A stretch of DNA of 64,000 bases, taken from contig NC_092672.1 of assembly GCF_964355755.1 (NCBI RefSeq), forward strand, positions 12,524,001-12,588,000, in the 5' to 3' direction. The translations under genes and the position numbers were made by a program. The notes under the pieces were generated by a model. That model worked only from the letters and a program-made list of their open reading frames with translations. It was not told where the DNA came from and made no database searches. Position 1 is the stretch's first letter. Every line of letters begins with the position of its first letter. Below are positions 4,694 through 63,165 of this stretch, in pieces. The DNA comes from Antedon mediterranea (Eukaryota; Animalia; Echinodermata).

Positions 4694-4880
4694 ATACCTT
4701 ATCTACGGAGTTCACAAGATGTGGATATGTTTTACATATTTCTTCAATTTCTTCCAAATATCCATATCCTACAGTTCTTAGCAATACGTTTCTGGAAATA
4801 AAGAAGATAAAAATGAATCATGGCAAGAATACTCGGTCGATGATGTTAATATGTTTGCTTGTCATGTTTCTAAACAATAA

Positions 4881-34400: not shown

Positions 34401-37400
34401 ATATGATTATATACTAATTCGCATGGGATGAGTAAGTATCATATAAGCGCACTCTTCCCTCATAAAAAGCCATGGATGTTGTTATACACCAAGTATTCCT
34501 TCACTTTTAAGTAACCATGAGCTACAAAATGAAAGCAATACTGGATATGGGACTTTACGAAAATGGAAAAATGGTGCTGTGTGAATACCATGATGCGCGC
34601 AATAACATAACGAAAGTATGTTAATGAAGTATTGGAATAAATCAACACAAAAAGTAGTCGAAATTTGACGATGCGCTCGGACACAAACTATTACTTTTTG
34701 GGTGTATTTTTTCTTTGAGACGTCAAATTACTGCTATTGTTTGCTTTTTTTAGTGTTTATCCTTAAAATTCAGCAAAGTGACATAGCCTATCGTGTGCGG
34801 CCCATCAATAAACATCAGTGTGCCAAATGTGAGCACGTACCGTTCGGTGGCTTTGGAAGAGATACATAAAATTAAAAAAATTTAGTAGCATTAATATTTA
34901 GATGCTAACATAATGTCTTTAAACAATTGGCGCCCTTTCTGATATTCTTTGGCTCCATCAAGATGATGATTATTGTGTATTAGTTAACAAAAGATTTGTA
35001 ATATTAGTTAAGTTAATAACATACTCCTAATCAAAATAAGAGTATACCTTGGATATAGGCGTACAGTAGTGGTTTGCTTAATAAGCAAAATTTAAAAATG
35101 CAAATGCAATGTTGCTGCATTAATTTACGGTACCTTGTTTCTTGCTTTAAGTGATGCTCCGTGGGCTATGAGACTGTTCACTATTTCTAAATTACCACCA
35201 AACCTAACGTGTCCATGTAGCGGTGTGTTTCCCTCCTGGAGAGCAGAAAGTTTTATGTATTATAATATACATTTTACACTTTAGATACTAGAACTAAGGT
35301 TTAAACAAATTTAATATTGTATTCGTTCTGCTCCTACAATTATAACAAGCAATTAACTACTACATCTAATTATTGTATATTTTGCTTCTCGTGGGCTACT
35401 CGTCTTTCAGTAGGTAACTTCGATGATCATCCCTGCCAAATCGCCAGGACTTGTCTGGCGGGTGTAGGCGATTATACAAGTACAATTATTTAAACTCTGG
35501 AGGCAACTGGAAATGCGTCTGGCAGGTGGACAGCCGGGAATGACAGCCGGGGTGTGAAGCATATGTTTATCGATTATAGATTGAAAGTTCGATGATAAAT
35601 CAGAATTAGGGTAAAAAATTGACTTCAGTAATGTAAACGGGGTCCCATCGTTTTATTACTTTTTATGAAATCATACACATAAGCGACATTATTGGTTCGG
35701 CATCATAGTCCGCAAGGTCTATGGTCAAAAAATTGTTAAGTAAATAGAGTATTTTGTTATTTATCTACGATAGACAACAGTATAACAGTACTGTAAATAA
35801 TACAACTAGTTGATTTTAATTGGGACGTGGAGAGGTGTTAGCAATGAACATAATTTTGAAAGTATTGGTATTAACGTGACAGCTATATGATGCTTAAAAT
35901 ACTTTAAACTTATATTTACTTTGATAAATAAATATGACTTTTCACAATTAAAATAAATTAAACAACTCCAAGGTTTGTTTATACGGGAGCTTATTTAGAT
36001 TAACTTATATTGCTGACTAATACGAATAATAACGTAAATGATTTTTTAAATTATTTTAAAAGAGTAATTTACATTGTTTGTTATATAGATACAGACGGGT
36101 AAGCACTGAACACATTTTAAAGTATTAATTTAGCGTCTTGTTCAATCTAAAACGCTACAGCTACACGATTTTTAATATATTTTAAATTATACTTAATTTG
36201 CTTTGATAATAACTATAGGCTACACTTGTTCACAATGAAAAGCACATTAAACGAATCTATGGGATTTGCTTATAATGGGACATAATTTAAATTAACTTTG
36301 TAAAAAAGAGTTTTTTTGTGTAAAAGAGTAATTTACATTGTCTGTTGCTGTGACTGATGCTCCGTGAGCTATGATACTGTTCAATATCTCTACATTACCA
36401 TCGGCAAACGTAACGTGTTTATGTAGCGGTGTGCTTCCAAGCTGATGGAAAGAAGAAAATTAGATTATTAAACTTGAGGCATTTTTTAAGAATATATGTA
36501 TTATTATATTATAATATTTATCCTTTTCTACATTCATTTTCTAATTAATTAAGAGTGAATGTAAATTATATAGAAAAACCTATTAAGAAAATAATAAAAC
36601 TTGTTGATTTTAATTATTATTATAAATACAGAAGGGTTAGCACTGAACACATTTTAAAAGTATTGATTTAGCGTCTTGTTCAATCTAAAACCCTACAGCT
36701 ACACGATTTTCAATACATTTTAAATTGTATTTTTGCTTTGATAATATAAACTATACATTTTTTCCAAGAAAAACACATTAAACGAATCTAGAGTTTACTT
36801 ATAACAGGAGACAATTTAAATTCACTTGTAGTGTTAACTAATACGAATAATTACGTTATTGATTTTTAAATCATTGTAAAAGAGTAATTTACATTGTTTG
36901 TTGCTGAGATTGATGCTCCATGAGCTATAAAACTGTTCACTATCTCTACATTACCACGGCCACACTCAACGTGTCCATGTAGCGGTGTGTTTCCTCTCTG
37001 GAAAGAAGAAAGTTAGATTAAACTTGACGCATTTTGTTAAGAATACAGGTATTTATTACATATTTATCCTTTTCTACATTCATTTTCTAATTCATTTTCT
37101 AAGTCCTTTCGCCGACTGCAAAAGAACACAGCGCCATAAGTACTCATTTTTCTAAATTAAAATTATGTGTACTTAATGCTCGATCCACGCAACGCAAAGC
37201 CTCAAGAAAAGGAGTGGAGCAAGTATCTGGAAATGGTGAGACGAGTACTAAATCCACAGAAAAGCATAGGTCTATAGAAAAAGCACATCTTAATTTTGGC
37301 ATTCTAAATGCACGTTCACTGCGTAACAAGTGTGATGAATTTGTGGACTTAGTTGTTAGCTATAATCTAGATGTAGTGGCGGTGTCTGAAACCTGGTTAA

Positions 37401-40400
37401 GACCAGATGATGATTTTGTGATTGGAGATTTAACTCCACTAGGATATCGCTTTGTGCATGTCCCTAGGGTGGACAAAACTGGGGGTGGTGTTGGAATTCT
37501 GTCTAAGTCAAGCCTAGTTGTTAACTTGAAAACGGATGTACATACATATGCATCATTTGAGGCTATACATGTGCATATTACGTCTAACTCGAAATCTCTT
37601 CGTTTAGTTAACATATATCGACCACCAACCTTGTCTGTTACAGAGTTCCTAAATGATTTTGAAAAAATGTTGTTTGACTTTATTCTCTTTTCGTCTGAAA
37701 TTGTTTTCTGCGGAGACTTTAATATCCATATGGATAATAAAAAAAATGTGGCAGCGGATAGATTTAAAACACTGCTTAGATCGTTTGGTCTCCAGCAGCA
37801 TATAAATGAACCCACACACTGTAGTGGGCACTGCCTCGACCTTATCATCACTAGAGATGATCTACTTCTCTCGGATGTAAAGATACACCCTGGCCTGTCA
37901 GATCATTTTGCCATATTTTGCAAGTTTGATCTTAAACGGCCCACAACACACAAAAACTGTAAGAAAAAGTCGCAACCTAAAACAAATTGATATTGAGAAA
38001 TTCACAAATGACATTAAAGCCTGTGTGTCTAAAGCCCCTTTCTCACAGATGTGTCTGCAATATACCGGTACAGTGCTGGCGTCGTGCTGGTATCGTTACC
38101 GGCATATACCCATTCTCATCGGACTATCGTGCCGGAAATATAACCGGTATATACCGGCTTTCTGTGAGAAAGGAGTCGGGCATATTCGGCCAATAAAAAG
38201 TCTCTGACAAAATAATTATTGAGGGCGTCCTTTATTGTTATTATTTTTGTCTAGGGATATATGGCGGCGAATGTTAAGTTACAGATTATTATCTTCCTTT
38301 ATAGCATATTTATGCAATAAATGCTATGTACAGTATATTGTGCATATATTATACAGGTACAGCAATTAATTAGTCGTCATCGGCAATCTGTAAAACACCT
38401 TAGAAGGCTGTACAATTTACAAGGCGACGAAGGGTCAGGCTAGTTAGGCACCAACAAAGAGCTATATGGCCTAGGCCTGCTATAGATTATGCTACAAATT
38501 TCTTCTTGTCCCTCTCTCTCTCTTATCTCATTATCCCTCCAGTTCGACATTATTATTGTTAATTGAATTGAATCGGCGCCAAAGTGATACAACCATACAC
38601 TTTACCGCGCAAGGTGTCTGAAGCCTCGACAGGGAACCCGGGAATATAACGGCGTTACGTTCTCACAGAATGCCCGTCTGGCATTGCGGGGAATATCCCT
38701 AGAATATTACTAGGTCTAAAGCAGGTCATGTCGATGCCGGCATGGTGCCGGCATGATGCCGAGACGACCCGTTCTCACAGAAATCCATACCGGCATGGTA
38801 ATGGTATATTCCCGCAATATTCCTGGCACTCAGCTCTGTGAGAAAGGGGCTTAATATAACTGATTTAAGTGTAATTCTTGAAGACAGTGTAGAAAGCTAT
38901 TCTGATCTCAGAGCTGTACTTGATTTACATGCGCCAGTTCAGAACAAAACAATTAGGCAAAAGGACGCTAAACCGTGGTATACCGATGAAATTCGATCTG
39001 AAAGGAAAGTACGTCGTCAACTTGAACGTAAATGGATGAAATCAAAGCTTCCTAAGGATAGACAGGAATACTGTGTTCAAAGATGCGTTGTAAATGGACT
39101 GATTGAAAAGGCCAAGACGCGGTATTACTCTAGTCTGGTTAGTGACTGCACAGGTGATCAAAAGAAACTTTTCAATATAGTAAATAAACTTTTACATCAC
39201 TCCAAGTCATCGGTCCTTCCTTCGTCTGTCTCCGATGAAGCTCTTGCTGAAAGATTTTCTGTGTTTTTTGTAAATAAAATTAAATCAATTCGTGATTCAC
39301 TAGAAAATGAAAATACTGGCGAAGTTATAACTGCTTCTGATAAATGTAATATATCTTATGGTTTAACTAGGTCTATACGGTTTTCTCAGTTCGAACCTGC
39401 AAGTGATGAGGAAATTTTAAAAATTGTCAAAAATTCTCCCTCTAAATCATGTGCACTTGACCCGGTACCAACTTCACTGATAAAGAAATGTACTTCTGCA
39501 TTTATTCCATTAATCACACATATTGTTAATAAGTCTCTTGAAAGTGGTTCTTTCCCAGAGTCTCTAAAAGTCACCCATGTTCGACCCACATTGAAAAAAA
39601 CAGGTCTAGATCCCGAGATTCTGAAAAACTACAGACCTATCTCGAATCTTAGTTTTTTAGGAAAAATAATTGAGAAGGTTGTTTCTAAACGGATTTTGTC
39701 GCATGTACAAAAACATGGCCTACTTGATCCGTATCAATCTGCCTACAAAGCGCATCACAGTACTGAAACGGCATTACTTCGTGTAAATAATGACATCCTA
39801 CGTGGGATGGATGATGGAAAGCTAACTGCTCTAGTATTATTAGATTTAAGTGCAGCATTTGATACGGTTGATCATTCTGTGTTGCTAAATAGACTCAGTA
39901 CTTATATTGGTATTGAAGGAAATGCACTTGATTGGTGTCGGTCATATTTGGAAAAACGACCTCAACACGTATGTATTGGTGATGCTATTTCAAAAGCTTC
40001 TTTTCTAAACTTTTCGGTACCACAAGGATCTGTTCTTGGGCCGCAATGGTTTTACTATTTATTTACACCCGATACGGGATATCATAAGTAAATATGATCT
40101 GTGCTATCATGTTTATGCTGATGATACTCAGATTTATATTTCTTTTAAACCTACTATGAAACACAGTGACATTTCTTTGGAATTGCTCCAACATTGTATC
40201 TATGAATTGCGTGTCTGGATGAAAAACAACTTTCTTAAATTAAATGATGAAAAAACAGAATTTGTTCTCTTTGGATCAAAACAGCAGTTGGAAAAACTGC
40301 CACCAAGCTTTATTCACATTGGTGAAACCCAAATGGACCCGGCTAGGCAGGTTAGAAATCTTGGGGTTGAAATGGATGTGGGTATGACTATGATTTCTCA

Positions 40401-43400
40401 TATCTCAAAAACTATTTCTGCGTCGTCTTTTCACTTGCGAAACATTCGAAGGATTCGTAAGTTTATAAATGAGACAGCAGCTAAACAACTTGTTCATGCT
40501 TTTGTCACTTCACGACTAGATATGGGAAACTCTTTGCTATACGGGCTACCACAAAAACAACTCCACAGGCTCCAACTGATTCAAAATACAGCGGCACGAG
40601 TTGTTAAAAAATTACCAAGATATGGACACATATCAAACACTTTGGAAATATTGCATTGGCTCCCTGTTAGGTACCGCATTGTTTTTAAAATATTACTTTT
40701 TGTTTTTAAGTCTATAAATGGCATGGCTCCTGAATATATTTCTGACATGCTTAGGCTGTATGTTCCCGGACGTAATCTGCGCTCTAGTGACTCGCTGCTT
40801 CTACATCAGCCTAAGTCTCACCACTCATGGGGTGACAGAGCATTCTCCGTTACTGCTCCTCGTCTGTGGAATGCTCTACCGAGCTCTATAAGATTTTGCA
40901 AAACTGTTGATACTTTTAAAAAATTATTAAAAACACATTTATTCATTAAGGCATATGGAAATCATGAGGTTTCTTAAAGTTGTTTAGACTTAGAATTGTT
41001 TTGTATACCTTTTCCTGGCCAGCATTATCTTTGGGGTGCCTCTGTCTTGGTTGTTGTCTCTGAGCACCCGGTCGTCTGTGGCAAGGCAAATGTGTATCCT
41101 GCTCCTTTGTTTGGTCACCTAGGTAGGGGTCCGGGACCGCGACAGAATAACAACGGATGGGGACCCTCCAAAGAAATTGCATTTTATTTGCCAGGAATTT
41201 GTATGATTTATTTCTTTTTTATTTTTAAATGCGCCTTGAGCACTCTGGAGTGGTATGTGCGCTATAAAAATCTTATTATTATTATTATTCCCCCCCTCCT
41301 AAAACGCTAATCGTCGTTAGACATTGCGCGTCTCACTTGTGTTCGCCACTCAGTACGTTTTTGAGCTAGCATGTGTATAGGTCCGCGTGTGAAAAGTTCT
41401 GTTTCCTTTTTTATGTTTGCCATCCATGTTGTTTTTCTATACATACAACATTAATTATTAAAATAAAGACGGGCTATGCAATGAACAGAGTTATTAATTT
41501 AGCGTCTTGTTCAATCTAAAATGCTACAGCTACACGATGTTTAATATATTTTAAATTGTATTTTTGCTTTGATAATAGGCCTAACTATACATTTTTCAAA
41601 TGAAATACACATTATACGAACCTAGGGTTTGTTTATAACGGGAGACAATTTAAATTAACTTGCAGTGTTAACTAATACGAGTAATTACGTTATTGATTTT
41701 TAAATCATTGTAAATGAGTAATTTACATTGTTTGTTGCTGTAACTGATGCTCGGTGAGCTATGAGACTGTTCACTATCTCTACCTCACCATAGCCAAAAT
41801 AAACGTGTTGATGTAGCGGTGTGTTTCCATCCTGGAAAGAAGAAAGTTAGATTAAACTTGACGCATTTTTTTTCAAGAATACAGGTATTATTATTATTAT
41901 TACATATTTTTCTTTTCTATATTCATTTTCTAATTCATTGAGAGTGACTGTAAATTATATAGAAATACTTGGTATTAAGAAATAATACAACTTGCTGATT
42001 TTAACTATTATAATACAGATGGGTTAGCAATGAACATATTTTAAAAGTATTAATTTAGCGTCTTGTTCGATCTAAAACGCTACAGGTATACGATTTTTAG
42101 TATATTTTCAATTGTATTTTTGCTTTGATAATAACTATACATTTTTTCCAATGAAAAACATATTAAACGAATCTAGTGGTTACTTATGCAGTAGTAGAAA
42201 AGTATTAATTTCGGTTCTTGTTAAATCCAAAATGCTACAGCTACACGATTTTCAATATAATTGTATTTTTGCTTTGATAATAACTATACATTTTCCAATG
42301 AAAAACACATTAAACGAATCTAAGGTTTGCTTATAACGGGAGATAATGTCAATTAACTTGTAGTGTTAACTAATACAAATAATTAATGCTTTTTAAATCA
42401 TTGTAAAAGAGTAATTTACATTGTTTGTTGCTTTGATTGATGCTCCGTGAGCAATGAGACTGTTCACTATCTCTACAATACCATCGCCAAGCGTAACGTG
42501 TTTATGTAGCGGTGTGTTTCCCTCCTGGAAAGAAGAAAGTTAGATTAAACTTGACGCATTTTTTTTAAGAATAAATGTATTATTATATTAAATATTTTTC
42601 TTTTCTATATTCATTTTCTAATTCATTAAGAGTGACTGTAAATTATATAGAAAGACCTGGTATTAAGAAAATAATACAACTTGCTGATTTTAATTATTAT
42701 AATACAGAGGGGTTAGCACTGAACACATTTTAAAAGTATTAATTTAGCGTCTTGTTTGATCTAAAACGCTACAGCTATACGATTTTCAATATACTTTAAA
42801 TTGTATTTTTGCTTTGATAATAACTAAACATTTTTCAAATGAAAAACACATTAAACAAATCTAGGATTTGCTTATAACGGGAGATAATACAAATTAATTT
42901 GTAGTGTTAACTAATACAGTACAAATAATTACGTTAATGATTTTTAAACAACATTGTATAAGAGTAATTTACATTGTTTGTTGCTGTGATTGATGCTCCG
43001 TGAGCTATAAGACTGTTCACTATCTCTACATTACCATCGCCAAGCGTAACATGTCTATGTAGCGGTGTGTTTCCATCCTGGAAAGAAGAAAGTTAGATTA
43101 AACTTGACGCTTGCCAACGTCGCATAATCCATCTGTTTTTACGATCCATTGTTGGGTTTACGCTTCCGAAAACTTACTTCAAGTCAAGTGCATCTACAGT
43201 AACAGTTATTATATTACCATAATGCCGTCTCTGTTATTAATCTTTCTCTTTTATTTTCCAGTTATCATGTATATGCATGTTAAACATTTTATTTGTTGCT
43301 TGTATGTATTCTAAAAGATACTAATAAATAGATAATATAGATGAACTATTTTAGATATTATTTGTTCAATTTATGATCCATTGGGATTCGCAGCTCCCGT

Positions 43401-46400: not shown

Positions 46401-49400
46401 ACATGTGGCGTATATTAGAAATAAAATCTCCCTAGCTAGTGCAGTTAGCTGAGACGATACTAGCGTATAATCCATAGGTCTTATTGCGATTTCTACATGT
46501 TATGTCATAGGCTACTATTGAGAAGTTATATTATACAGATATTGACTGTTTAGAGGTTAAATATAAGATTTGACATCCCCGAGGGAATGATATTAAGTTC
46601 GAGGGAATATATATTTCCCGAGAACTTAATATCATTCCCGAGGGGATGTCAAATCTTATATTTAACCGATATAAAAGGCAATATCTGTTATATTATATAG
46701 CCAAGAACAAGTCTGCTGGGTTGGGTGAAGCTAGGCTAGGCCTCCTATGTATTTGTATTGTATTTAAACAAGCCTGCCTAGACACCTTACCTTGCGAAGA
46801 ATAATATACAGATAATTACTAATTAATGATTCCTTGGCAATAAAATATTCACTTAGGCCTAGGTCGTTTAAATTAACAGGAGAATTTCCATCAATAAGCC
46901 TATTAATAATAATATTAAATCAGGTAGGCCGAATAAACAATTTGTCTTCTTCTGTTCGAGGAGCCGAATCAACGGATGTTCAGCGCGTACTAGTTACTAG
47001 GTTACTACCGTGAGTATTGACCAATCACAAACTGTGTTTCATCACATTTAGGGTGGACTAAAAACAAATGAGGGCGCTATGTATGCATAGCTTAAATAGT
47101 TTAGAAGATTAATTTCTTCAAGCAACTTCCGTGGCGCAGCGGTTGAAGCGTTGTCTTGCGATGGAGTGGCAATTCCACCCGAGTTCAAGATCGAGTAGAT
47201 GACTTTTGTTTATTTATCGGCAAACGCGAGTGTTGCCACATGAAAATTACACAGTCAATATCATCGAACTCGAGAATGTTTATGTTTAATGACAGGGGAC
47301 ACGATAATTACGCAAAAATTACACAGTCAATATCATCGTTCTCGAGGATACATATATACGATTTACGATCCTCGCAGCGGTAGTCATGTGATGCAGTTTC
47401 AACCAATCACGTTCGCGTATTTACATAGGCTATGTAATCTATATATAAATTTACGTAAGGGCAAAATTCGGTAAATCGCGCTTTACTTCTAGAATTTTTA
47501 CTCGATGGTATATAAAGTTGGTTCGTACTTTCGGTACTGATTTTAACCACCTGATGTACCCTGTTTACTACTTAAATTAAGTTAGATAATTAGTTATTGA
47601 CGATTAAAACGAATTTAGGTTCAACGATTTGCTCCAAATAGGGGTGTTTTCCGATCGTGGTATACACTGTCTAATGGATGTCCATCTTGAAAAATACCCG
47701 CCACTAAAATGCGAGGATGCTTCGCATTTTCCTATCTCCTCCTACGATAATTGTTTTTAATAGCTGAAAACCGGTTGAACAGCATCATAATGTTGAAGAC
47801 AGGCCGATTTTCTTTAAAAAAATACTATTTTGATAGATTTAATATACGATTATACAAATGTATTGATTTGCGATGAATGGAACATCCCAATCTCTCAGTC
47901 TGCCAGAGTTTGGTTTAACACAAGTAGGTAAATTTATGAGCCCTTGGTTTAACACATACGGTAGGTAAATATATGGGCCCTTTGAGAATAAACTTGCAAT
48001 ACTTTGACAATACTGTAAATACCAACTATTTTTGGTCCTCATTTGAATCGAACATTTCTTACTGTGAATGTTCGTATACTGTTAGATGTAATTATAAAAA
48101 TATATACAAATAAACTTTATTACTGAGATTGTGGATAGGCTCTACTGTTAGATATAAACACATTATTATATACAAATAAACTTTATACTGACAGTTCGTT
48201 CTCAACGTTTATATTAATTAATAATTACCAAAAATATAAACGTCGTAGTGGTGTACCATGACATGTACTTTAATATTTCAATCGATTATGACAGTGACAG
48301 TTTTAACAAAGTATTACGGTAAATCGCAAATGTTTTACTGTATTTAGAGTATACTATTTATAGGCCTATAAAACATTGAAAAAATAGTTCGTTACTGAGT
48401 GGATAAAGAATATATTTAAAAATTGTTCCTCTGTGTACTTATCCGCTTTCCCATCCCTCAACCCTAATGTTACATACAAAACACAAATTGGGTTTCTTTA
48501 AATGAGTCCAAATAAAAAATCTGGACTCATTTTGTGATAAGTTTCTCCTTCGGAAGTAATTCCCAGGGTGCTAATTTTAGTTGACTACATAAAACATCGT
48601 GTCTATTTATTCGTTTCTGTAAACGACAATGTATTATAGTCCTGCGGTATTTGAAATCGCCAGTTTTGTTACGCTGAAATTACTGTGTATTCGAGAACCA
48701 TCTGTGGGCACGACCTATAGTATAATAAATTATCTCTATTGTGGCTTGATTACACGCCTTCCGTTTTTTTTTCTTTTACGGGTTATCTCAACTCAAATAA
48801 GTGTAGTGAGGCCGCAGTTATAGTCTATTAGTAGAGTAGATTGTGTCTGTTATTGTTTATTAATAAATGTTTTCATACCCATTAATCAACAGTTTAAAAA
48901 AGGGTTCTTGTTTTTCACCCACTTAATTTCACCGTAAACGTTTTATATCATATTTCTTTTAGTATAAAACACTTTGCAAAGATTTAGTAACTTTTTGCAG
49001 GGTGTATTATTTCATAAATAAGTCATATTCACTTGACAAGCTAGTATAACTTATAGAAAAGATCATATTCAACGCAATTAGAAGTACGGTATCTCTGAAG
49101 ACCTTTTTGAAGCTCCGGTTAATCCTTATGAGAAAGCTCATACCGAACGTTGTATGCATATTAATCCGCTGAGTCAGTTTACTGTATGTCTATTAATCCG
49201 CTGGATTCAGTGTTCAGTGTGAATAATATCCTTTTAAAAATATATGGATTGTATAATTATATATATATAGTTTCTATACCTTATCTACGGAGTTCACAAG
49301 ATGTGGATATGTTTTACATATTTCTTCAATTTCTTCCAAGCCTGTATAGCTTGATACAGCTCTTAGTAATACTTTTCTGAGAAAAAAAAAGAATATAAAA

Positions 49401-52400
49401 ATGCATCATGGCAAGAATATTCGGTCGATAATGTTAATATGTTTATTGTTCATGTTTCTAAATAATAATAAATACACTTTTCGTTGAACTATTTATAATA
49501 TTAAAAGTTTGTTGGATATAAAATGTAAAGCTTTCTTCTCCATAAAAAAAAATGCAGTCCTCCACAGTTTGAAGAAATAACTTACTCATCCATTGAAAAA
49601 ATGCACTCTGTAGTTGCCAATCATTCAGTGGCTGCTGAAAAATGAAACTCAACATTTAAGCATATATTAATAAATAAAATTAATTTACCTGTTAATTACG
49701 TAAAATTGTTGTTTTTTGTTTGTTTTATTTAAACACAAATTATTTTAATTCTCTGTTGGAGCTAAACAGTATAATTATATTAAGTCTTAAAAATCTTAAA
49801 AAACATTATGGTTTTGAGCTAATTTTTATTGTATTACACTTTATTTGTAGGAATATTTTCTGGGCAATTCCATGGTCACTCGCATTACACATTACAGTCA
49901 TTTTTGTTAGTCTAAGCTTTGTACTTTCTATACTAATTGGATTTTTAAGTCAATGTTTTATATGAACATACTTTAGGTGCAAGTCTTTAATAAAATACTT
50001 TAAAAAAAATTGTATGTCTTTTACTTCGACAATGACGCCATTGCGAAATTCTGTCACACGCATTACACAAAAAGGACACAACAAAAATTTGATTAGATTT
50101 GATAAGAACGTGTCCTTAAACTAAAAATATATGAATCAAAAGATCTTATATTTTTAATTGCTATACTTTTAAAGTATAAAATAGGATAATAAAAAAATTC
50201 AACATTACACAGATTTTAAAAATATTTGACATTTTAACAAAAAAGTCCTGTCACTCGCATTACTGTCACTCGCATTACCGTAAGAAATGAACTTAGTATT
50301 TACTAAACAAAGCAGATTTTAGAACGAAGAAAAGTATACAATAATTAAATAATGCAACATTAAACCACTCAAAGGATTTTATATCAATTTTCAAGTAAAA
50401 ACTTTTATTTCAACTCATTTGGATGAAGTTCTAAAGGACATCATCTATTTTTAACACTAACAGAACATCTTGTTTTTTTATAAACACAGTAACACTTTAA
50501 CGGTCACTAAAAATGAAAATAGAAAATTCAAACAGCCATTTTACAAATTATGGAACTCAAAGTTCTTCGCAAACCAGCATCAAGCCTTCTTTTTGCCCTG
50601 GTAGTGGCTTTAGCAAAAGCTATAGCACTTCTAAAAGGTGATGGCCCGTCTGATGCCAAAGCAGCCTTCTTTGCTCTGAACTTAGCCACACGTTTTCTAT
50701 TAGCAACTTTAAGAGCATCAATCTTCTGCTTCTTCAAAGCTGGTGGCAGAGCTAGAATTTTCTCTTTTCTTTCACTTTTTTACTTCTTTTCGAAATTTCA
50801 TTTTGTTTGTTTCTGTATGAGGTGTATTTTCCCTCGGCTTTCAGTTTTTCTAGGTACTTTCTTTGTCGTTCGGCCATTTCTAAAAGCAGGATGCAAATGT
50901 GAATGATATTTTAAAATTATTTTTAAATAATAATAGTGCTTTAGACCTGGTGGTGTAAAATATGCCTAGTAAATAATAATATATAAATAAATTATTATAG
51001 CCTAGGCCTATGCAGTGTTTTCAAATTATAGAATTTGAAATAATTAACACTAACAATATAAGAAAAAAAAACTTAAAAATTGTGATTAAATAAAAATGTA
51101 TACTTATTCTTATCTTCACAAAAGATTGTACCAAATTTGATAAATTTTTTATTTAATGAGCTCTTATAATGATTGATTTTTCAAATGATTTAACTGCAAA
51201 AAGGTCATTGCTAGGGATTGTGCTGCCCTCAACAAACCTAATGCTATAATTATTATACTGTACTGCCTCCAAATAAGGGCTAAATCACACATTGTATTAT
51301 GAAATTAATGTATATACTAATTCTGGGACTAATTCATAACTAATTATAGATTAATTACTATTTTACTTTACAAAAAAAAGAGTTTTAGTAATGTCACTCG
51401 CATTACATTGTCCATTTTTTAACGTCACTCGCATTACATGTCACTCGCATTTCACTTGTCAATGTCTCAACAATTTTGTATTTACGGGGATTTTTTATTT
51501 TTATTTATCAAATTTTAATTGTTCAAAGTAGTATAGCTAAATTATAAAATTTCATTAAAAAAAAATTATCATCACGATGGTATAAAAAAAAAAAAAATTT
51601 TTGTTGTCACTCGCATTACATACCCTAATATATAACAGAATATATATATATATGGGATATTCAACATTTGTAGTTATATCATATTTTCCATACATCTTAA
51701 GTGTACTATTACTTAGAAATGTTACTTTATAAATATTGCTTTGTTGGGGAAATAATAATCAGTTAACGTAATTACCTATTTTTCACACCTAAAAAAAAAT
51801 ATATATTCAACATTGAATAAACGTAATTTTTTGGCTGCAAAAATTCATAAATGAATTGAAAAAGTTAAAAACCTAGTTCCCACATATTCAAAGAGTAACA
51901 TAAACACAAATTTTGAGCTGACTAATTAATTTGAATTTTTTTGGTCATGTCCATGTTTGCATGGAATTGCCCTTCTTAGTTTTCCTAGCTTCTACAGTAG
52001 GAAGGCTAAGCATATGCTGTTCCACCAAAGTCAAGCGATTTGGAAGGGCCCACGCCACGAGACAGGGGATGATTGGGAGAGAGATACTGCCGGTCGTTGT
52101 CTTTGCGTGCGCAAGGGTGTGTAACTAATAAAACGGCTATTTTATGCTCTAGCAAACACAGGATATTCGTCAAAATAGTTAAATTGCTATTATTTAATAC
52201 ATTTGATCATATCAATAAAAATAAAATAAATTTAACTTAAAATAAATTTAACAATTCAATATTCAATTATCAATTGTCTAAAAAGAAAAAGAATCAATAA
52301 AATTTAATTAAGAAATACACAAGAATAAATATAAACGTACGGCATACAGTATATATTCTTGAGTTTAGATCCATTGTTAGTTTACCATTATTATTATATT

Positions 52401-55400: not shown

Positions 55401-58400
55401 GTCTATCGTGTCTTATATTATGCAAACAATTACGTATGGTTTTAGGATATTAATAAAATATATAGATAATATGCCGTTATAAATCAATCTACCGGCCTAC
55501 AGTAGGACTATGATGTACAGTGATAGATAAAGGTGAACACGATTCTCAAAGAGGTAATCTGCACTGATTTACTAAACGGCATATGAATGCGAGACACTGA
55601 GTTGCACTTACTTAATTTTTTACATTAAATGATTATTATAAATGAAGAAATAAAAGATATTCAAATTAAAATCTATAGTATCGCCGACGTATTTTATACG
55701 TAAATTATATATAAATCATACTGTCAAATTATAGAAACAGTACTTTATTCGGAATTATTATGGATATAGCAAGCCTGTGAGCTACAGCGACTTTAATTGC
55801 TTTTGCTTATCCTTGCCTCCTTAGATTTCCACGTGTCTTGATTTTGTTACATATGTTTTAAATGTATTTCGATTTTAAAGGCTAAATAAAGAATGAATGA
55901 ATGAATGAACATAATCTCATAATCGCGTCGAGCATCTATAGCTCATTGAATCGTTTCACAAAAACACGTGCAGGAGGCCTATAGACGTTTCAAACGTATG
56001 GTTATTAGTAATAGACGTCATCTTTATCTCGCCATGGACAACGATCGTACGTGTTTTGTCCATGAGTTGACACACTAACAAGTGCGTGTTTTTTAAAAAG
56101 GGGAAACCCCGTCAGCAAAATAACGTATTGTTAGAGGAAACAGCTTCACGATCGTAGAAGGCGCATCTCCGTCGATATGGCTTATTCGGGGGTTTATTTC
56201 AGTAACTCGCTTTTTAACCATCCGCATATAATGATCATTTTACTAAAAACTATTTTAAACATTAGAAATAAAAATATACACGTGATTTGCCTCAACAATA
56301 ATCATTATATACTTAATATTATCCTACATAACGGATAGAAATAAAATAAGGTGATCGAATAGTATGTTGTTAACGACATGGATGATATAATCTGCCACAT
56401 ATTATTATGCATAAGTATAAAAATGGATACGCTGGCTTTACGGGCTATATTGTAAAAATTATTGTTTTTAAATAAATTGTTCTCTTTTACGTAATTGTTT
56501 GCATAATAAAAGACACGACAGACGTATATTCTCTATATAATATATTAATTACAGTACATATAAATAGAGGTATTTTATTTTTATTTCTTTATTCTGATAT
56601 AAAATCAATAGGATAAAAACACAAAAAAGTACCGAGACGGCAAACTTATTTCCATTGTGGTCCTAAATTTCCATTGTGGTCCTAGGTAAATTATTATATG
56701 CCTAATATAACATTATGCCTAATACATATAATACATATAATACATATAATATTTTTAAGGACTGTGTGTTTTCAAAATTAAAATTTTGAAAACACACAGT
56801 CCTTCTCCAAGACCTGTGAAATACAAAAAAAAAATTAATTTAATGATTGATAATAAATATTTATTAACCAAGTAAAAAATATCCACATAAATAATCTAGT
56901 TCCTAAAAAATATCAATTAACTATATAAACGAAAAATGTATATCCCGCTCTAGCATGCATCCCGCTCGATCCATTCAAAATAACGCGACCGATTTAAAAC
57001 GCGACCGATTTAAAAAAAACGCGACCGATATCATCAAAGGTACAGCTCTAGCGGCGCGCCATACAAAATACCGGAAGTTGATTTTATCGCGACCGATTTC
57101 ATCTAACACCAATTATTTACATTAAATGATTAGGCCCCTATTAGGCCTATTATACATGAAGAAATAAAAGATTTTTCAAATTAAAATCTATAGTATCGCC
57201 GACGTATATATACGTAGATTATATATAAATCCTACTGTCAAATTATAGAAACAGTGCTCATATTCGGAGCCTAAGGCTAGGCTAGGCCTAGTAGCCTGTA
57301 AGCTAGGCCTAGGCTAGGGGCTAGGCTAAAATGCTCGTTTAACTAGTATCAATCAAAATAACAAATAAACAAGTAACAAAATCTGTCTCACCACATTGGC
57401 CAGTGTCATACAAAATTCTTGGAAGAGAGATGAGGATCTCAAAATCACAATAAATGCGTTAAAATTGAATCAAACAACAATAATAACAAACTACTATTTT
57501 ATCAAAAACTGAGATTTAAATGCATGATGCTTGAGTTGAGAGCAAGCAAAACCGTCAACAACAACAATGTATTTCGTATCTTTCTTGCCGCAAAGATCTT
57601 ATTACTAAAGATAGGACACTCTCGGAATTTTACGTGCAATTTATGTAACACACATGGAGCTCATTTTATAGGGCGCCCTCTCGCTCAAACAAGTAGATTT
57701 ATGGATCAGATATGTCTACTGTATTGTAACTGAATACTCAATTTTTTTCATCACAATAATTGCGGTAATGTGCGATTAAATTATAATAAATTATTTCCTG
57801 TAATTTGTATATCTCTATTTGTTTTAATTACTGAATAATGTTGTTATTATTGAATGTTTATCATCATCCTCAAAATCATCATCTAGGAGTAATCATCACT
57901 CACATCACTACTACTTATTTATGCGAGTCGGTCCCTCTGGTATTAACAACACTAAGCGCATCGTATTCCGTTTTTGTTCTTGATATGTTCTTCCTTTTCA
58001 TCCAGCAGCAAAACAGTACAGATTAGGAAAATATAGTAGTCAAATAGTGTGTTATAAACAATTAAAAAAGAACAAGAAGTCACTTTTTGAAAATCACTAC
58101 TTCGACTATTATTTTTATTGCAGTAATTTTTAGGAATATATTATAAACAATCATAGGCTTAAGCCTACAGTCATGACATGAAACAGATTATGATAGTCAA
58201 TTCTGAGACAATTCATACTAGGACTACTGCATTATGTACCCATCATTCGCCATGACATTTATTTGTTATTATAATTTATTTAAAACCTGAGATAGCAATT
58301 AGTTATGTTATAGTAGTCTCAGTTTAAAATTAACTCAATAACTATTGCAAAATGATGCACGGGCCACCCAGAGGAAATATAAAAAATGTAGAAACATTGA

Positions 58401-60805
58401 AATAAAATCATCATATTTACAATTATTCAATCATCATACCAGACCGTCGTAATGATCATCATTTCTAGCCGATAATGCACAGACCGAGGCGCGTACAGAC
58501 CTCCTACAACTTTATGGCATACCTCATAAATGTGATACTTTAATTAATTTTTCACTCTTCTTCTTATCACTGATTATGTCTCTGTTGAAGAATTTAACAG
58601 CATAGAATATGCGTAGGTTTACGTACGTTTCAATTAGCAATGTTTCAATTGCTGGTGAACAAACATTCAACTTCATAAAATGTGTTAGGAACTAGCTGCT
58701 TTGGGTCTTCCAGTTTTCGATTGGTTTCTCGCATCGCACTGTTACAGATATCGCAATTGTGCTTTACACTTGCTTTCTTGACGACGTAACCGGCTACATA
58801 TACTAAAGTATTTAGCTGAGTCATCTCAAAGTCTTCTAAGCAGCAGTCGTCGTCAGTGGTGGCATCGTTGTCTTCTTGATCGGCAACATGATGCGATTAT
58901 GAGGTAATTTCCCGGTTGATCGTAATCAAAACGGTACTGGATTTGGTCTACTAGCGTTCCTGCTCCCAACCAGTACATCCATTCATAGAAGTCTTAATGA
59001 AGTAAGCCTACCTGGTGGTGGCCATAGAACGGTCCCGAGATAACGACTATACTTCGGCTTTAGTCGATAGAAGATTGAATAAATTGTTAGAGATAGAGTA
59101 TACGATATTATGATTATGTGTAGATATGTGATTTGTTCTTTTTATTCAAATGATGTTATGTATTTAATAAATTTGTTATATCAATTAATTAAATTAGCGA
59201 AGATTGCATATTATGCGATGAATATTATTTAATAAATGTTTGATATATTATTATTATTATATTAATAAAAAAAAAACAAGGTCTAACCTAAACAACCTAA
59301 AACCACTAACTAACTAACGGTTGAATTTTATAAGATTCAATTAAAAATTGTTTGTTAGGGCTACTCAACGGATAAGTAATATACTGTAATGTATGTAACG
59401 GCTAGTTAATTAATTAAACGAAATAAAATAACCATGAGACAGAAAGCAAATATTAACCATGAGACAGAAAGCATGAAATAATCAAGATCACAATTTGTTT
59501 ATACTGTATTAAGTATTATTATTATTATTATTTGTATAATATAAAAAGAGGGACTAGGCCTCCTACAGCGACATGCCAATTGGGCTTCTTGTAGTCGTTC
59601 GACCAAATTTTTACTTATATGCCAACAATTGTAATGATATATATTTGGTCAATAAATGTTTCTTGAATTGAAAGTAGTAAAAATTGTTTGTTAAGGGTAC
59701 TAAATGTTAAAAGATAAGTAATATATAACCAGGGAACAGTGAAATTAGTGTAATTTCACTGTTATATTCATTCATTATATCTCAGATGCTAGTGAAGTAC
59801 GGTAGTATCTACTATTAGCTAACCCCAAAGTTACCCCAGCTAAAAAAAACAAGGTATCAAGTGTATGTAGCTAACCGGGTACAACAAATCAACGATGCAA
59901 CTTCCATAGAAAACATCTTCTAATCCGAGTGATATAGTCAGTAGAGCCGTGCGTGCTAACAGTAAGCAATTGAGTTCAGATACCGGATGGGTGAGTTGTT
60001 CTACACTTCTTCACCAGGTAGTTCTTACCGTACCAAACAAAGGCGGTTGGCCGAAATCGATGAGGAATCGCGTATAAGGTTGTTGCTTCAGAACTAAAAT
60101 ATATTCGCTCATTCCACACTAATGTTGACAAAGTTGTTTCAGAATGGTTTTATAACAGACAGATAAAATGAACTATAAATCACATTAAATGTATTGAATG
60201 TTCATTCCTCTTAAAAGAGCCAACACGTAGTAAGGCATATTTTTTAGATATGCCTATCAATGGATGGTAAACTTAACAGTGATATAAGACAACAAAACAG
60301 ATGCAATAATTTAATATGAACAGATTTGTGTAAATATTGCAAGGAGCAATGTAACGGCACTATGTGTAACTGAGTTAAGGATTATGTAAATGTTGTTGAA
60401 GATATGCTCATCGGGAATAATTTGCATAAAATACCATGTTAGCCTACGTATATTAGAAATCTCACTCGATAGTGTAGGGTAGTCAGTTGAGACGATGCTA
60501 TCGTCAGCTGCACGATTTTTAATATATTTTAAATTGTATTTTTGCTTTGATAATAACTATATATTGTTTCCCAATGAAAACACATTTAAACGAATCTACG
60601 GTTTGCTTATAACGGGAGATAATGTAAATTAACTTGTAGTGTTAACTAATACGAATGATTACGTTAATGATTTTTAAATCATTGTATAAGAGTAATTTAC
60701 ATTGTTTGTTGCCGTGATTGATGCTCCATGAGCTATAAGACTGTTCACTATCTCTACATTACCACGGCCAAACTGAACGTGTTCATGTAGCGGTGTGTTT
60801 CCATC
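24895..60805 (-). CDS. Spliced ROCO-family gene: ankyrin repeats - Roc GTPase - COR - tandem DED-like domains (5' end not located; inclusion of the 60701-60805 exon uncertain)
   Basis: Exons 5'->3': 60701-60805, 42973-43077, 42420-42524, 41727-41831, 36893-36997, 36337-36441, 35134-35235, 32902-32986, 32502-32658, 31696-31799, 31135-31305, 30811-30957, 30233-30301, 29683-29891, 29227-29316, 28915-29109, 28405-28650, 27564-27758, 27239-27400, 26827-27129, 26194-26274, 25891-26098, 25627-25662, 24895-25424. All have AG/GT boundaries and phases that join into one open frame ending at TAG 24895. Motifs: GxTPLH ankyrins, P-loop GKEGAGKTS, STDGI, WDYAGQ, LVATHMD. Confidence 0.85.
25891..28650 (-). 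CDS. COR domain and C-terminal Cys/His-rich segment exons
   Basis: VPLKWVDLQ, AIAYLNDIGVIMY, LRNTVITN, GILEEKLLRHLW, MKTFGLL, FLVPC and LPDSVYNTLV are typical COR-region motifs following Roc. Followed by CIAC...H...C...C. Confidence 0.8.
28405..32658 (-). CDS. Roc (Ras-of-complex) GTPase exons with a long Ser/acidic insert
   Basis: G1 MFLGKEGAGKTS (32502-32658), G2 STDGI (31696-31799), G3 IWDYAGQLDYYITHRFFL (29683-29891 plus 29227-29316), G4 PPICLVATHMD (28915-29109). Confidence 0.88.
33034..33993 (+). mobile_element. Non-autonomous Helitron, family A copy 3 (internally deleted), in a ROCO intron
   Basis: a|TCtatatatacatttacg start, homologous body, CTAG|t at 33990-33993. Lies only ~46 bp from the acceptor of exon 32902-32986. 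Confidence 0.8.
33764..33921 (+). mobile_element. Helentron-associated (DINE/HINE-like) mini-element nested in a Helitron
   Basis: ttttagtcgcgtggacgcgact hairpin, (gtcg/gtct)n microsatellite, ends cttgtt, inserted at TT. Absent from the other family A copies. Confidence 0.65.
34358..34902 (-). mobile_element. Short non-autonomous Helitron-like element
   Basis: On the minus strand: a|TCtaaatattaat start, GC-rich imperfect hairpin ccacgcggagcacggg, then CTAG|t. Confidence 0.55.
35134..35235 (-). CDS. Last ankyrin-repeat exon: EGNTPLHGHVRFGGNLEIVNSLIAHGASLKARNK
   Basis: 102 bp (one codon shorter), phase 0-0, more divergent flanks. Splices to the capping exon 32902-32986 (RGQTPASALKD...). Confidence 0.88.
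36061..36100 (-). pseudogene. Collapsed ankyrin cassette: donor site and last 10 nt of the exon retained, exon body deleted
   Basis: agagtaatttac|attgtttgtt matches the other cassettes, then jumps almost directly to the cassette intron motif atacagacgggtaagcactgaacacatttt. Confidence 0.7.
36337..36441 (-). CDS. Ankyrin-repeat exon: LGSTPLHKHVTFADGNVEILNSIIAHGASVTATDN
   Basis: 105 bp, phase 0-0, acceptor ttctttccatcag|, donor |gtaaat, 556 bp from the previous exon. Confidence 0.88.
36893..36997 (-). CDS. Ankyrin-repeat exon: RGNTPLHGHVECGRGNVEIVNSFIAHGASISATNN
   Basis: 105 bp, phase 0-0, canonical splice sites. Confidence 0.9.
37103..41289 (+). mobile_element. L2-clade LINE ORF2 (APE endonuclease + RT), disrupted, antisense within an ankyrin-cassette intron
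   Basis: APE motifs LNARSL, VSETWL, GGGVG, IYRPP, GDFN, SDH. RT motifs NYRPISNL, LDLSAAFDTVDH, VPQGSVLGP, YADDTQ. L2-type C-terminus HWLPV...GDRAFSVTAPRLWNALP. (TTA)n tail at 41274-41289. Frameshifts near 37950 and 40050. Confidence 0.92.
38033..38851. mobile_element. PIF/Harbinger-like MITE inserted in the LINE
   Basis: TIR agcccctttctcacaga / tctgtgagaaaggggct, TAA TSD. Removal restores the LINE frame ...DIKACVS|NITDLSV... Confidence 0.88.
41727..41831 (-). CDS. Ankyrin-repeat exon: DGNTPLHQHVYFGYGEVEIVNSLIAHRASVTATNN
   Basis: 105 bp, phase 0-0, canonical splice sites. Confidence 0.9.
42420..42524 (-). CDS. Ankyrin-repeat exon: EGNTPLHKHVTLGDGIVEIVNSLIAHGASIKATNN
   Basis: 105 bp, phase 0-0, canonical splice sites, 553 bp from the previous exon. 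Confidence 0.9.
42973..43077 (-). CDS. Ankyrin-repeat exon: DGNTPLHRHVTLGDGNVEIVNSLIAHGASITATNN
   Basis: 105 bp, phase 0-0, canonical splice sites, ankyrin consensus GxTPLH...G..EIV..LI.HGA. Confidence 0.9.
43870..44858. mobile_element. Foldback/Mutator-like MITE with ~340-bp TIRs containing (ccgaaaacaa)n
   Basis: Termini cggtcagtctaattaccg / cggtaattagactgaccc, imperfect 9-bp TSD gatttaaat/gaattaaat. Empty site gagatttaaatgcatg at ~57511. Confidence 0.8.
46521..48724. mobile_element. Unclassified element with a large subterminal hairpin, carrying a nested Helitron
   Basis: Absent from the paralog at ~3470-3485. 46-bp-arm hairpin at 46555-46667. Boundaries approximate. Confidence 0.55.
47438..48720 (+). 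mobile_element. Non-autonomous Helitron, family A copy 4 (terminal hairpin missing)
   Basis: a|TCtatatataaatttacgtaaggg start, homologous through gggcacgacct. Confidence 0.85.
49862..51972 (-). mobile_element. Sola2-like DNA transposon deletion derivative
   Basis: TIR gggcaattccatg / catggaattgccc, 4-bp TSD ttct, repeated tgtcactcgcattac motifs. Basic coding remnant 50528-50737 (ANRKRVAKFRAKK...SPFRSAIAFAKATTRAKRRL) resembles Sola2 transposase N-termini as I recall them. Confidence 0.7.
53121..54240 (+). mobile_element. Non-autonomous Helitron, family A copy 5 (3' truncated)
   Basis: a|TCtatatataaatttacg start. Empty A|T site at ~10523. Homology stops ~250 bp short of the 3' end. Confidence 0.82.
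54937..57110. mobile_element. Long-TIR DNA element (Merlin- or Mutator-like)
   Basis: GG...CC termini, 8-bp TSD aattattt (54929-54936, 57111-57118), inverted arms ~54937-55436 and ~56487-57110 with aaatcggtcgcg repeats. Confidence 0.75.
57591..59000 (-). mobile_element. P-element relic with transposase C-terminal fragments
   Basis: Minus-strand NTLVYVAGYVVKKASVKHNCDICNS (~58735-58815) and ETYVNLRIFYAVKFFNRDIISDKKKSEKLIKVSHL* (stop 58524) match P-transposase C-terminal patterns. Terminus caaagat at 57591 resembles the 20391 MITE. Other end not found. Confidence 0.7.
60701..60805 (-). CDS. Ankyrin-repeat exon (distal cassette): DGNTPLHEHVQFGRGNVEIVNSLIAHGASITATNN
   Basis: 105 bp, phase 0-0, ctttcttctttccag| acceptor and |gtaaattac donor. 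Flanking cassette intron is homologous to the other units. Confidence 0.8.
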
Positions 60806-60910
60806 CTGGAAAGAAGAAAGTTAGTATTATTATATTTCATATTTATCCTTTTCTACATTAATTTTCTAATTCATTAAGAGTGAATGTAAATTATATAGAA
60901 ATACCTGGTA

Positions 60911-62236
60911 TCTATATATAAATTATGGTTAATTCTGACATAGGCGAGCACAATGCAAAAACTTCGGTACAAATCTCCGCCTTGGATACCTACCTTATCT
61001 ATCCGAGATGTACCGCGAAACGTAGATTTGATAACATTAGTGTGCACGCCGACGCTATTGTTCCATATTTATATCTTAGGAAGATATTATAAAGAGTTTT
61101 TTAACAACATTTATGATTTCAACATTGGATTTTCCTCTCAATTTCAATTCTTCCCGGTCAAAGTAATTTCCGGGTTTAAGATAAGTTCACCTTAGTTTCA
61201 AATATTTTCTCTCTTTTATACACAAGGGAGCAGTTAAAATAATAGATTTGACCCTAAAGGTGACTGGAAACAGGCACTTTCCATCAATCAAAACAGTGTC
61301 CCTTTGGAAGATGAAAAAAAAATTGGCCATTAATCATAGCCATTTCAGTTTTTTGTTTATTTTAAAACATACCACACGTGTGTGAAGGTACAGTAGTTAA
61401 ATAATAGGAAATATACGGCAAATTAATAAAGATCAAATTAAATATACGCCATAAAGAATCAGAATATATTGTGGGGAATAGTATTATAAAATTACATAGG
61501 GAGATTTGATAAGACATTTTTCGAGTGAAATCCCGATAGCTGAGTTTTATTGAGTAAGTTTGCAGGAATAACTGTAGGCTATCTTCCTGTGTCCCGTTAG
61601 GACCGAGATGTCTGCCCATGTTGCAAGCCGTAATGTCTTCTTTCTTGGGCCCACTCTGTCACGGCAGTTAGTTTCAAAAGATGATTAAATTAAATAATGT
61701 ATTAATAATTATTAGGATGGTATTCATTTGAATAAACGCCTCTCCAATAAAACATCACTTTGAATAATAACCCCTCCCCCCCCCCCCACAACCCAACTAT
61801 CTAATAAACGTCCATCCACATATTTATAATAACACAATTATACTATTTGTAGTAGAATTCACCGCACTGTTATCTGCAATTTACCAAGCATTTGTTATTC
61901 TTTTTTACCACTTTTCATATCTATGAGAGGATTTCATTTGATTATAAATGTTACCATATTATTAGAACTAAAAAATTTAACATATATCCCCCGAATAAGC
62001 ACCTCCCTCAAATGACCTCCGCCTCCCCAAAGGGCCCTACCAAACAATAAAAACTATACTTTAAAATGTTATTAATCATCTAAAACACTGTGAAACAAAG
62101 TAGTTTAGTTTTACGAATGTCAAGCATTTTCAATAATGGTAACCGACAGAAAATGTATAAGGAGAACATTATCATTCCGAGAACCATCGTCTACACTTCC
62201 TAGAGGGGGAGCGAGCGAAGCGAGCTCACCCTCTAG
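60911..62236 (+). mobile_element. Non-autonomous Helitron, family B, inserted in an ankyrin-cassette intron
   Basis: cctggta|TCtatatata ... ctagagggggagcgagcgaagcgagctcaccctCTAG|ttaagaaaataat. Empty site cctggtattaagaaaataat at 42656-42675. Confidence 0.88.
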
Positions 62237-63129: not shown

Positions 63130-63165
63130 CATGGATTAAAGAATAGATCTATTCTTTAATCCATG
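63130..63165. mobile_element. 36-bp perfect palindrome with 7-bp TSD, probable P-element excision footprint
   Basis: gtttaac|catggattaaagaatagatctattctttaatccatg|gtttaac. Single gtttaac in the paralog at ~57337. Confidence 0.7.

Follow-up and report, generated by a model that had tools for sequence, protein, structure and literature searches.

A recently copied one-repeat-per-exon ankyrin array in a Roco-DED gene of the crinoid Antedon mediterranea: a candidate fast-diversifying sensor

Background

The closest described systems to the locus presented here come from brown algae and fungi. Brown-algal LRR-ROCO genes (PMC3341825, PMC11378527) carry a repeat sensor N-terminal to Roc-COR with one repeat per symmetric exon, as does the gene described below. 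Fungi possess NLRs of high internal conservation, such as the Podospora NACHT-ANK protein Pa_3_8560 (Dyrka et al. 2014, PMC4986451), for which the criterion has been 85% identity over at least 100 residues. Other systems resemble the locus in part. The 90-bp-exon LRR genes of Tetrahymena (PMC6564038) likewise consist of tandem exon-plus-intron units with LINE elements beside them, and unequal crossing over has been proposed for them; these, however, are LRR genes with phase 2 exons, number in the thousands and belong to a ciliate, and a Roco-DED part is not stated in the available text. Within animals, the ROCO expansion of Trichoplax (Civiero et al. 2014, PMC4104024) also combines Roc-COR with repeat and death-fold domains, but the repeats are TPR or LRR and the death folds CARD or Death, and the available text of that paper neither mentions ankyrin nor describes cassette diversification.

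Mouse Ank3 (PMC4449188) shows how far an exon layout can be taken as informative. Here too there is one ankyrin repeat per exon, each exon being a multiple of three bases and cut at the same place, and single repeat exons are occasionally skipped; however, the exons are of 99 bp, the introns range from 89 bp to 25 kb, so that there is no repeated cassette, and the product is a cytoskeletal adaptor. The original prediction for the crinoid locus had regarded the one-exon-one-ankyrin arrangement as special. Since the phase-0 layout is ordinary in animals, and exon skipping occurs even in Ank3, the layout by itself does not point to a diversity system, and what does distinguish the locus is the copying of a cassette together with selection on the repeat. 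How receptor diversity arises in invertebrates, which have no antibodies, remains to be explained, and very little work exists on crinoid immunity.

Results and discussion

An intact gene split in the annotation

The window, i.e. the whole stretch of 64,000 nucleotides that was analysed, contains an intact ANK-Roc-COR-DED-DED frame of Antedon mediterranea (Table 1). The full model has 25 exons, all GT-AG, and 1259 codons, with no internal stop or frameshift. This gene was missed by annotation because it is split in two RefSeq models inside the Roc insertion: P0009, which is identical to the first 443 amino acids of our model, begins at the N-cap and has six repeats in order, and P0010, which is identical to the C-terminal 719 amino acids. 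Since the paralog models P0002, P0004, P0011 and P0013 continue across the junction, we read the split as an annotation artefact; it suggests weak transcript support at the junction, of which weak expression could be the cause. A search with the last exon returned eight A. mediterranea proteins.

Table 1. Features of the locus, in the order in which the minus strand is read (positions are those of the window)
Feature	Position	Strand	Remarks
Rearranged relic of a paralog's 5' end	57280..64000	-	Intron 2 copies, cassette-intron fragments, orphan exon
Orphan cassette ankyrin exon, intact	60701..60805	-	105 bp, phase 0-0; upstream of the gene's start codon
First coding exon	49586..49593	-	Met-Asp + 2 nt, phase 2 donor; matches P0009 start; GT donor
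Ankyrin N-cap exon	49280..49376	-	Enters in phase 2, leaves in phase 0; identical (100%) to P0009 residues 4-35
Ankyrin repeat exon 1	42973..43077	-	105 bp, phase 0-0, cassette
Ankyrin repeat exon 2	42420..42524	-	105 bp, phase 0-0, cassette; spacing of 553 bp to exon 1
Ankyrin repeat exon 3	41727..41831	-	105 bp, phase 0-0, cassette; 693 bp spacing
LINE retrotransposon, broken frame	37100..41450 (ends approximate)	+	Pfam Exo_endo_phos + RVT_1
Ankyrin repeat exon 4	36893..36997	-	105 bp, phase 0-0, cassette
Ankyrin repeat exon 5	36337..36441	-	105 bp, phase 0-0; cassette with the highest divergence; spacing of 556 bp to exon 4
Exon-less cassette remnant	35795..36082	-	Exon's last bases + donor site + 5' part of cassette intron
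Ankyrin repeat exon 6, terminal	35134..35235	-	102 bp, phase 0-0, own flanks
Ankyrin C-cap exon	32902..32986	-	
Roc GTPase domain, 8 exons	28915..32658	-	G1-G4 motifs; Ser/acidic insertion
COR domain, 6 exons	25891..28650	-	Pfam COR-A on P0010
Linker exon	25627..25662	-	36 bp, phase 1-1; required for exact P0010 match
Last exon, two predicted death effector domains + stop	24895..25424	-	Weak Pfam DED matches
Further paralog's 5' end, first exon + N-cap exon	4698..6292	-	Runs off the window's left end

Six repeats and a shared exon-plus-intron cassette

Repeat finding returned seven related exon-sized copies and a longer cassette family between 35.1 and 60.9 kb. As had been predicted, these copies are phase 0-0 ankyrin exons, six of 105 bp and one of 102 bp; all seven are on the minus strand, bounded by AG and GT, and open, and the three that were scanned all passed the Pfam Ank cut-off. 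A tblastn search with all seven on both strands of the window gave neither an eighth nor an inverted copy. What did not hold was the assignment of all seven to one gene. The start codon and the N-cap exon stand between the exons at 60805 and 43077, and P0009 has six repeats; thus the array is of six repeats, not seven. A seven-repeat frame reading through the N-cap could also be ruled out, as the N-cap acceptor is in phase 2.

The six 105-bp exons do lie in a duplicated exon-plus-intron cassette with undisturbed spacings of 553 and 556 bp, as originally described. Their shared introns have a mean difference of 0.128 over about 190 nt (about 87% alike) and the exons themselves one of 0.132, while the three whole cassette introns differ at 31-40 of about 435 columns; blastn E-values to 1e-142 or lower place this similarity far above chance. 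Single repeats are 71-89% identical to the orphan repeat, with a mean of 0.74 among the six and 82-93% at the DNA level. From upstream to downstream the seven exons are spaced by 17728, 553, 693, 4834, 556 and 1206 bp, where the 693 bp is due to an internal duplication of about 150 bp in the intron and the 4834 bp to a LINE that sits in the cassette intron separating repeat exons 3 and 4. This element encodes an endonuclease and a reverse transcriptase, and around it cassette homology breaks off at 41451 and resumes at 37096. It carries a nested insert of 822 bp (38030-38851) that is skipped by contigs in four of four sequencing runs. Contig depth was left unused, since it does not give copy number, as were contig joints skipping 559 or 1107 bases, since they may derive from paralogous cassettes, and one run that had been guessed to be RNA looks like DNA, its contigs covering introns. 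The exon-less remnant matches the cassette at 72% over 316 nt (blastn) and has a donor-like sequence. The terminal exon 6 clusters with the terminal repeats of the paralogs P0002 and P0013.

An array of this kind could in principle generate variety by splicing, with combinatorial skipping as the main source of diversity and subsets of repeats (perhaps including the orphan exon, from an upstream promoter) joined to a constant Roc-COR-DED part. All the exons are phase 0-0, so that the predicted in-frame skipping of any subset is arithmetically correct for the six; the six cassette donors are identical over 8 nt and four acceptors over 32 nt, and the donor of the orphan exon is in phase with exon 43077. 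The annotated RefSeq isoforms X1 and X2 of one paralog (P0159 and P0060) differ by exactly one 36-amino-acid repeat, and brown-algal ROCO genes do skip repeats (PMC11378527). However, skipping was not observed for this gene, whose sole annotated model includes all six repeats in order, six exons yield at most 64 subsets, and occasional skipping of single exons is also seen in the ordinary mouse Ank3 (PMC4449188). We consider it fairly unlikely that splicing is where most of the diversity comes from, although it may add to variation created at the DNA level.

The orphan exon and its surroundings

The start codon is 11 kb downstream of the intact orphan exon at 60805, which is surrounded by copies of the gene's intron 2 (63993-63168, 60504-59839 and 57584-57280); in place of the first ankyrin exon there are about 280 bp of other sequence, followed by cassette-intron fragments. 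No second copy of any Roc, COR or DED exon is present in the window, and, given the intron 2 copies around the exon, we regard the region as a relic of a paralog's 5' end. At the other end of the window, the first exon of the further paralog, at 6292, has a changed donor GT, and its N-cap exon ends at 4698.

A spare cassette exon may bring to mind somatic rearrangement in immune cells, in the style of the lamprey VLRs, with orphan exons serving as donors. The long intron homology could guide conversion, and the same idea has been raised, unproven, for brown algae (PMC3341825). Nevertheless, there is one spare exon in 64 kb, which is explained as a duplication relic, and the gene is complete in the assembled DNA, so we view such rearrangement as highly improbable.

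Change concentrated around the predicted binding face

For the analysis of selection we used the six 105-bp exons, five from the gene and the orphan. Change concentrates at repeat positions 1, 8, 11, 12 and 14, while 21 of the 35 residues are invariant, against 14 expected (p 0.018); for whole exons pN/pS is 0.139/0.111. Model M2a was preferred over M1a in all four runs (2dL 13.8-20.7, p 1e-3 to 3e-5, omega 5-8), two of which used trees with the same result, and sites 1, 8, 11 and 14 exceeded 0.9 under M2a in every run, site 12 in three. Since recombination can inflate site-model tests, columns were also compared directly with the introns of the same cassettes. At first and second codon positions, sites 1, 8, 11 and 14 have a difference of 0.60-0.70, versus 0.134 in 149 intron columns; the top-3 and top-5 statistics were reached in none of 20000 resamplings, and codons 1, 8, 11, 12 and 14 vary 3-5 times more than introns. 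A cruder test, based on three sites with at least four residues, gave a borderline outcome, with p 0.05 when the intron rate was assumed and p 0.29 under a higher one; at least four states are found at 5 of 35 codons versus 3 of 49 intron triplets.

These comparisons bear on whether the array may simply be the outcome of neutral, repeat-driven growth of a tandem cluster that is unstable and rich in transposons, with the gene as a drifting duplicate or young pseudogene whose surface residues are unconstrained. The gene has two broken 5' relics and several transposons on its flanks, its RefSeq model is split, and exon 30361-30233 lacks, in frame, about 15 residues that paralogs have, all of which would fit such a history. 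However, the 1259 codons are free of stops and frameshifts, the repeat framework is conserved, and four codons at about five times the intron rate go beyond what relaxation alone would give; moreover, in half of the neutral simulations a stop arises in the six exons. Neutral expansion is therefore disfavoured, and we rate it improbable.

A published ankyrin library randomises positions 2, 3, 5, 10, 13 and 33 of DxxGxTPLH-type repeats, which make up a binding surface that runs without a break over the beta-turn and helix 1 (PMC4308713); in our numbering these are positions 35, 1, 3, 8, 11 and 33, respectively. This set, fixed beforehand, scores 0.35 (p 5e-4), driven by positions 1, 8 and 11, whereas 3, 33 and 35 are nearly or wholly invariant in the array. 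Evolution thus varies three of the six positions that engineers randomised in designed ankyrin binders (PMC4308713). Structure prediction from a 28-row alignment gave a confident ankyrin solenoid (pLDDT 81-97), with DARPins and ankyrins as the nearest structures, in which helix 1 corresponds to repeat positions 5-11 and the turn to 12-16; the turn is two residues longer than in DARPins, and the N-cap exon is helical (pLDDT 81-95). A fold computed without an alignment was a beta-strand artefact (pLDDT 43) and was discarded. Codons 1, 8, 11, 12 and 14 are at or beside the predicted ankyrin binding face. In contigs of the sequencing runs over 34500-43600, two of 40 variant rows (of 399) lie within ankyrin exons, the residues altered being 8 and 11; these variants may be alleles or paralogs.

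Signals of recombination

It had been predicted that intron homology drives crossover or conversion, and homology accompanied by a recombination signal is indeed present. The introns are homologous, and in a PHI-like test compatibility was higher between neighbouring informative sites than between sites far apart (11 of 12 settings with p under 0.01), a signal that persists with the hypervariable codons removed; in contrast, Sawyer-type tests of tract length gave no support (p 0.98 and p 0.31). The intron tree was rejected by the exon data (AU p 0.01), and the exon tree was not rejected by the intron data (AU p 0.12). Exchange also seems to extend beyond the array, as identity to neighbouring paralogs is a patchwork along the exons: to P0002 it is 1.00 in Roc, 0.52-0.59 in COR-B and 0.91 in DED, to P0004 0.97 and then 0.83-0.67, and to P0011 0.92 and then 1.00. 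This pattern points to exchange between genes of the cluster. Taken from the sequence, diversification of the repeat array in the germline is supported.

Paralogs with their own arrays

A search of cluster representatives with P0002 gave 3141 matches, of which the best 150 were taken. A repeat profile matched 16 of 159 proteins, and seven of these have at least two repeats at a mean identity of 0.66-0.92; all seven array-bearing proteins are from A. mediterranea, on four contigs. Four have homogenised arrays of their own, on three other contigs: P0006 (4 repeats), P0014 (8), P0158 (7-8) and P0159 (3). The repeat unit differs among paralogs (35, 36 or 37-38 residues), and repeats cluster largely by locus. 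Comparison of the paralog protein models, along the lines suggested for this locus, thus shows that both repeat number and unit differ among them. The arrays of P0006, P0014, P0158 and P0159 vary in the same helix-1/turn zone; in P0158 the recent duplication of a block has left identical repeat pairs, and its homogenised array varies little, so that the selection-type signal is not found in every array.

In the Roc-COR tree, built from 26 of 33 chosen rows (seven were without the cut region), the array-bearing proteins and 5'-truncated models share a single clade with good support. An apparent four changes of the array label on this tree were dismissed, since they reflect those truncated models rather than losses. 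Protein searches with the ankyrin region, of limited sensitivity, gave only P0002 (one of 229 candidates) and P0009 (one of 16), and hence no close relative of this repeat unit beyond the locus. With a profile made from Antedon repeats, no homogenised array was detected in four relatives from Anneissia (P0053, P0067, P0097 and P0118), which came from a query with one repeat.

The predicted signalling part

The four motifs at model positions 308, 330, 565 and 656, which we take to be G1, G2, G3 and G4, are intact, and a long Ser/acidic insertion with pLDDT under 50 separates G2 from G3. Pfam Roc matches P0009 at E 9e-5 and P0002 at 2e-10, passing the cut-off in the unsplit P0002 and P0013, and COR-A matches P0010 at E 5.6e-17. 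Since Roc and then COR occur in order across P0009/P0010, the protein is by sequence a ROCO family member. DAPK1, a conserved single-copy gene, combines ankyrin repeats, Roc-COR and a death domain with a kinase. In DAPK1 the kinase is N-terminal, whereas our gene starts at the ankyrin N-cap and there is no kinase match in P0009/P0010.

The last exon matches Pfam DED at E 6e-8, its 33.3 bits being below the 35.9 cut-off, and each of its halves matches DED (PF01335) weakly, also below cut-off (E 2e-4 and 9e-3); the two halves align weakly to each other (hhalign probability 12%). A PDB search with its sequence gave only myosin light chains (E 0.5) and none of the chains that contain a DED. The last exon is, however, 37% identical (E 3e-26) to a module found at the N-terminus of P0032, a DED-NACHT-LRR protein in which that module is repeated five times ahead of NACHT-LRR. 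Judged by sequence similarity, this DED pair is common to our gene and an NLR-type protein, and the last exon likely encodes two death-signalling domains. The open frame and the Roc, COR-A and DED matches bear out the prediction of a downstream Roc-COR-death-fold protein. Relatives, among 25 proteins scanned, pair Roc-COR with DED, Death, HEPN, TIR, kinase, ZU5, KIX-TAZ, Macro or fn3, and modular domain swapping of that type has been described for conflict and immune systems (PMC8195603).

A proposed mode of action

We propose that the gene probably encodes a cytosolic sensor of non-self, re-tuned through germline change, its six repeats having arisen by recent copying of an exon together with its intron and its predicted binding face having been diversified. 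The long homology of near-identical cassette introns would let cassettes misalign, unequal crossover and gene conversion would add, remove and remix repeats, the symmetric phase would keep each recombination product in frame, and selection would retain new binding surfaces. Going by the domain families, a ligand on the concave ankyrin face may switch the Roc-COR GTPase dimer, which in turn may cluster the tandem DEDs; these could then recruit DED adaptors or a caspase-8-like protease, leading to cell death or inflammatory signalling. Exon skipping could add variants, in a secondary role. That the gene is likely a fast-diversifying immune-type sensor is argued from analogy and from the selection pattern, which are the grounds for proposing an immune role.

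The diversification might instead serve self/non-self recognition between individuals, or a conflict with selfish elements or gamete partners, rather than pathogen sensing; we judge this unlikely. Feather stars are solitary, which counts against it, neither the model nor the sequence shows an evident N-terminal signal peptide or membrane segment, which fits a cytosolic ligand, and the DED module is common to an NLR-type protein. Nevertheless, positive selection does not identify the partner, and the closest ankyrin precedent, the fungal conserved-repeat NLRs, is known functionally from allorecognition (PMC13449251, PMC4986451).

A bolder form of the non-self sensor proposal, which we put forward tentatively and hold to be doubtful, is that the paralogs constitute an undescribed receptor family equivalent to a natural DARPin library, with arrays that recombine per locus, differ between individuals and undergo exon skipping that multiplies binding surfaces within one animal, and that feed a DED death pathway shared with NLRs. 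With its short length, the array is within reach of long-read amplicons from DNA and cDNA.

Comparison with known systems

In the literature, mostly open-access papers, we found no description of ankyrin-Roco-DED cassette arrays in crinoids or other animals, and no precedent was found for an animal Roco-DED protein in which a cassette has been copied recently and is under diversifying selection; the available text of PMC6321704 does not mention Roc. The likeness to brown-algal LRR-ROCO genes (PMC3341825, PMC11378527) includes selection on the concave face and tandem clusters with broken copies. The repeat-coding exons are 72-bp phase-2 LRR exons in the algae but 105-bp phase-0 ankyrin exons here; introns of the algal genes hold spare repeats on the non-coding strand, whereas the tblastn search gave none here, all seven copies being on the minus strand; the algal proteins have a simple LRR-Roc-COR architecture, whereas a predicted tandem DED follows at the C-terminus here; and splicing variants are documented for the algal genes (PMC11378527), whereas here there is an annotated pair in a paralog only. 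Still, with symmetric exons, Roc-COR and a selected face, the idea of an animal, ankyrin-based analogue of the algal one-repeat-per-exon ROCO genes agrees with our results.

The Pa_3_8560-type NLRs share homogenised ankyrin repeats with positive selection on the inner helix and hairpin, and recombination between their repeats has been inferred (PMC4986451). They differ in having a NACHT or NB-ARC core with C-terminal repeats, as opposed to a Roc-COR core with N-terminal repeats, and in that repeat-number polymorphism has been shown for them (PMC4986451), whereas here the paralog models differ in repeat number; the available text of that paper does not contain the word "exon", while the copied unit here is an exon with its intron. 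By analogy, then, the crinoid gene works like brown-algal LRR-ROCO genes and fungal conserved-repeat NLRs and is a member of neither group. If this is true, the strategy of brown algae and fungi, a recombining repeat array on an NTPase switch, would also be in use in a deuterostome animal.

Repeats and transposon-like elements around the gene

The window contains several repeat classes, listed below. Among these is a region of repeated short motifs that also holds a short basic ORF, in which a Pfam scan found no match, and this region is probably the relic of a DNA transposon. The first of the two long inverted-repeat elements is absent from the copy of the gene's intron 2 that is found in the relic, i.e. 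the rearranged copy of the 5' end of a paralog. The five copies of the non-coding repeat in the window share 72-88% likeness, and the satellite separates the 3' end of the gene from the next paralog.

Repetitive and transposon-like features of the window
Feature	Position	Strand	Details
Non-coding repeat (n=5)	4872-6169, 7092-8347, 33030-33779, 47432-48717, 53110-54240		1.1-1.3 kb
Satellite	13939-20319		71-bp unit, 90 copies, 96% matches
LINE reverse-transcriptase fragments	22313-23480	+	broken; Pfam RVT_1
Long inverted-repeat elements (n=2)	43862-44867, 54978-57101		MITE-like
Repeated motifs with ORF	49234-51640		15-16 bp motifs
Short basic ORF	50528-50779

Length variation and extra domains in related proteins

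The annotated N-termini of two A. mediterranea paralogs, P0002 and P0013, come from translating, out of frame, a cassette exon together with part of the array's final intron, and because of this misreading the arrays at both loci are under-annotated. A second type of length variation in the family is provided by low-complexity tandem repeats, variable in number, that lie within Roc or the COR-DED linker of P0003, P0006 and P0014. At the N-terminus of P0032, a NACHT-LRR protein, the predicted DED-pair module of the gene's last exon occurs five times in tandem. The related Roc-COR proteins P0017, P0019, P0042 and P0044 carry extra domains, either a HEPN effector or TAZ-KIX or Macro, and where the domains are TAZ-KIX or Macro these may possibly represent integrated decoys.
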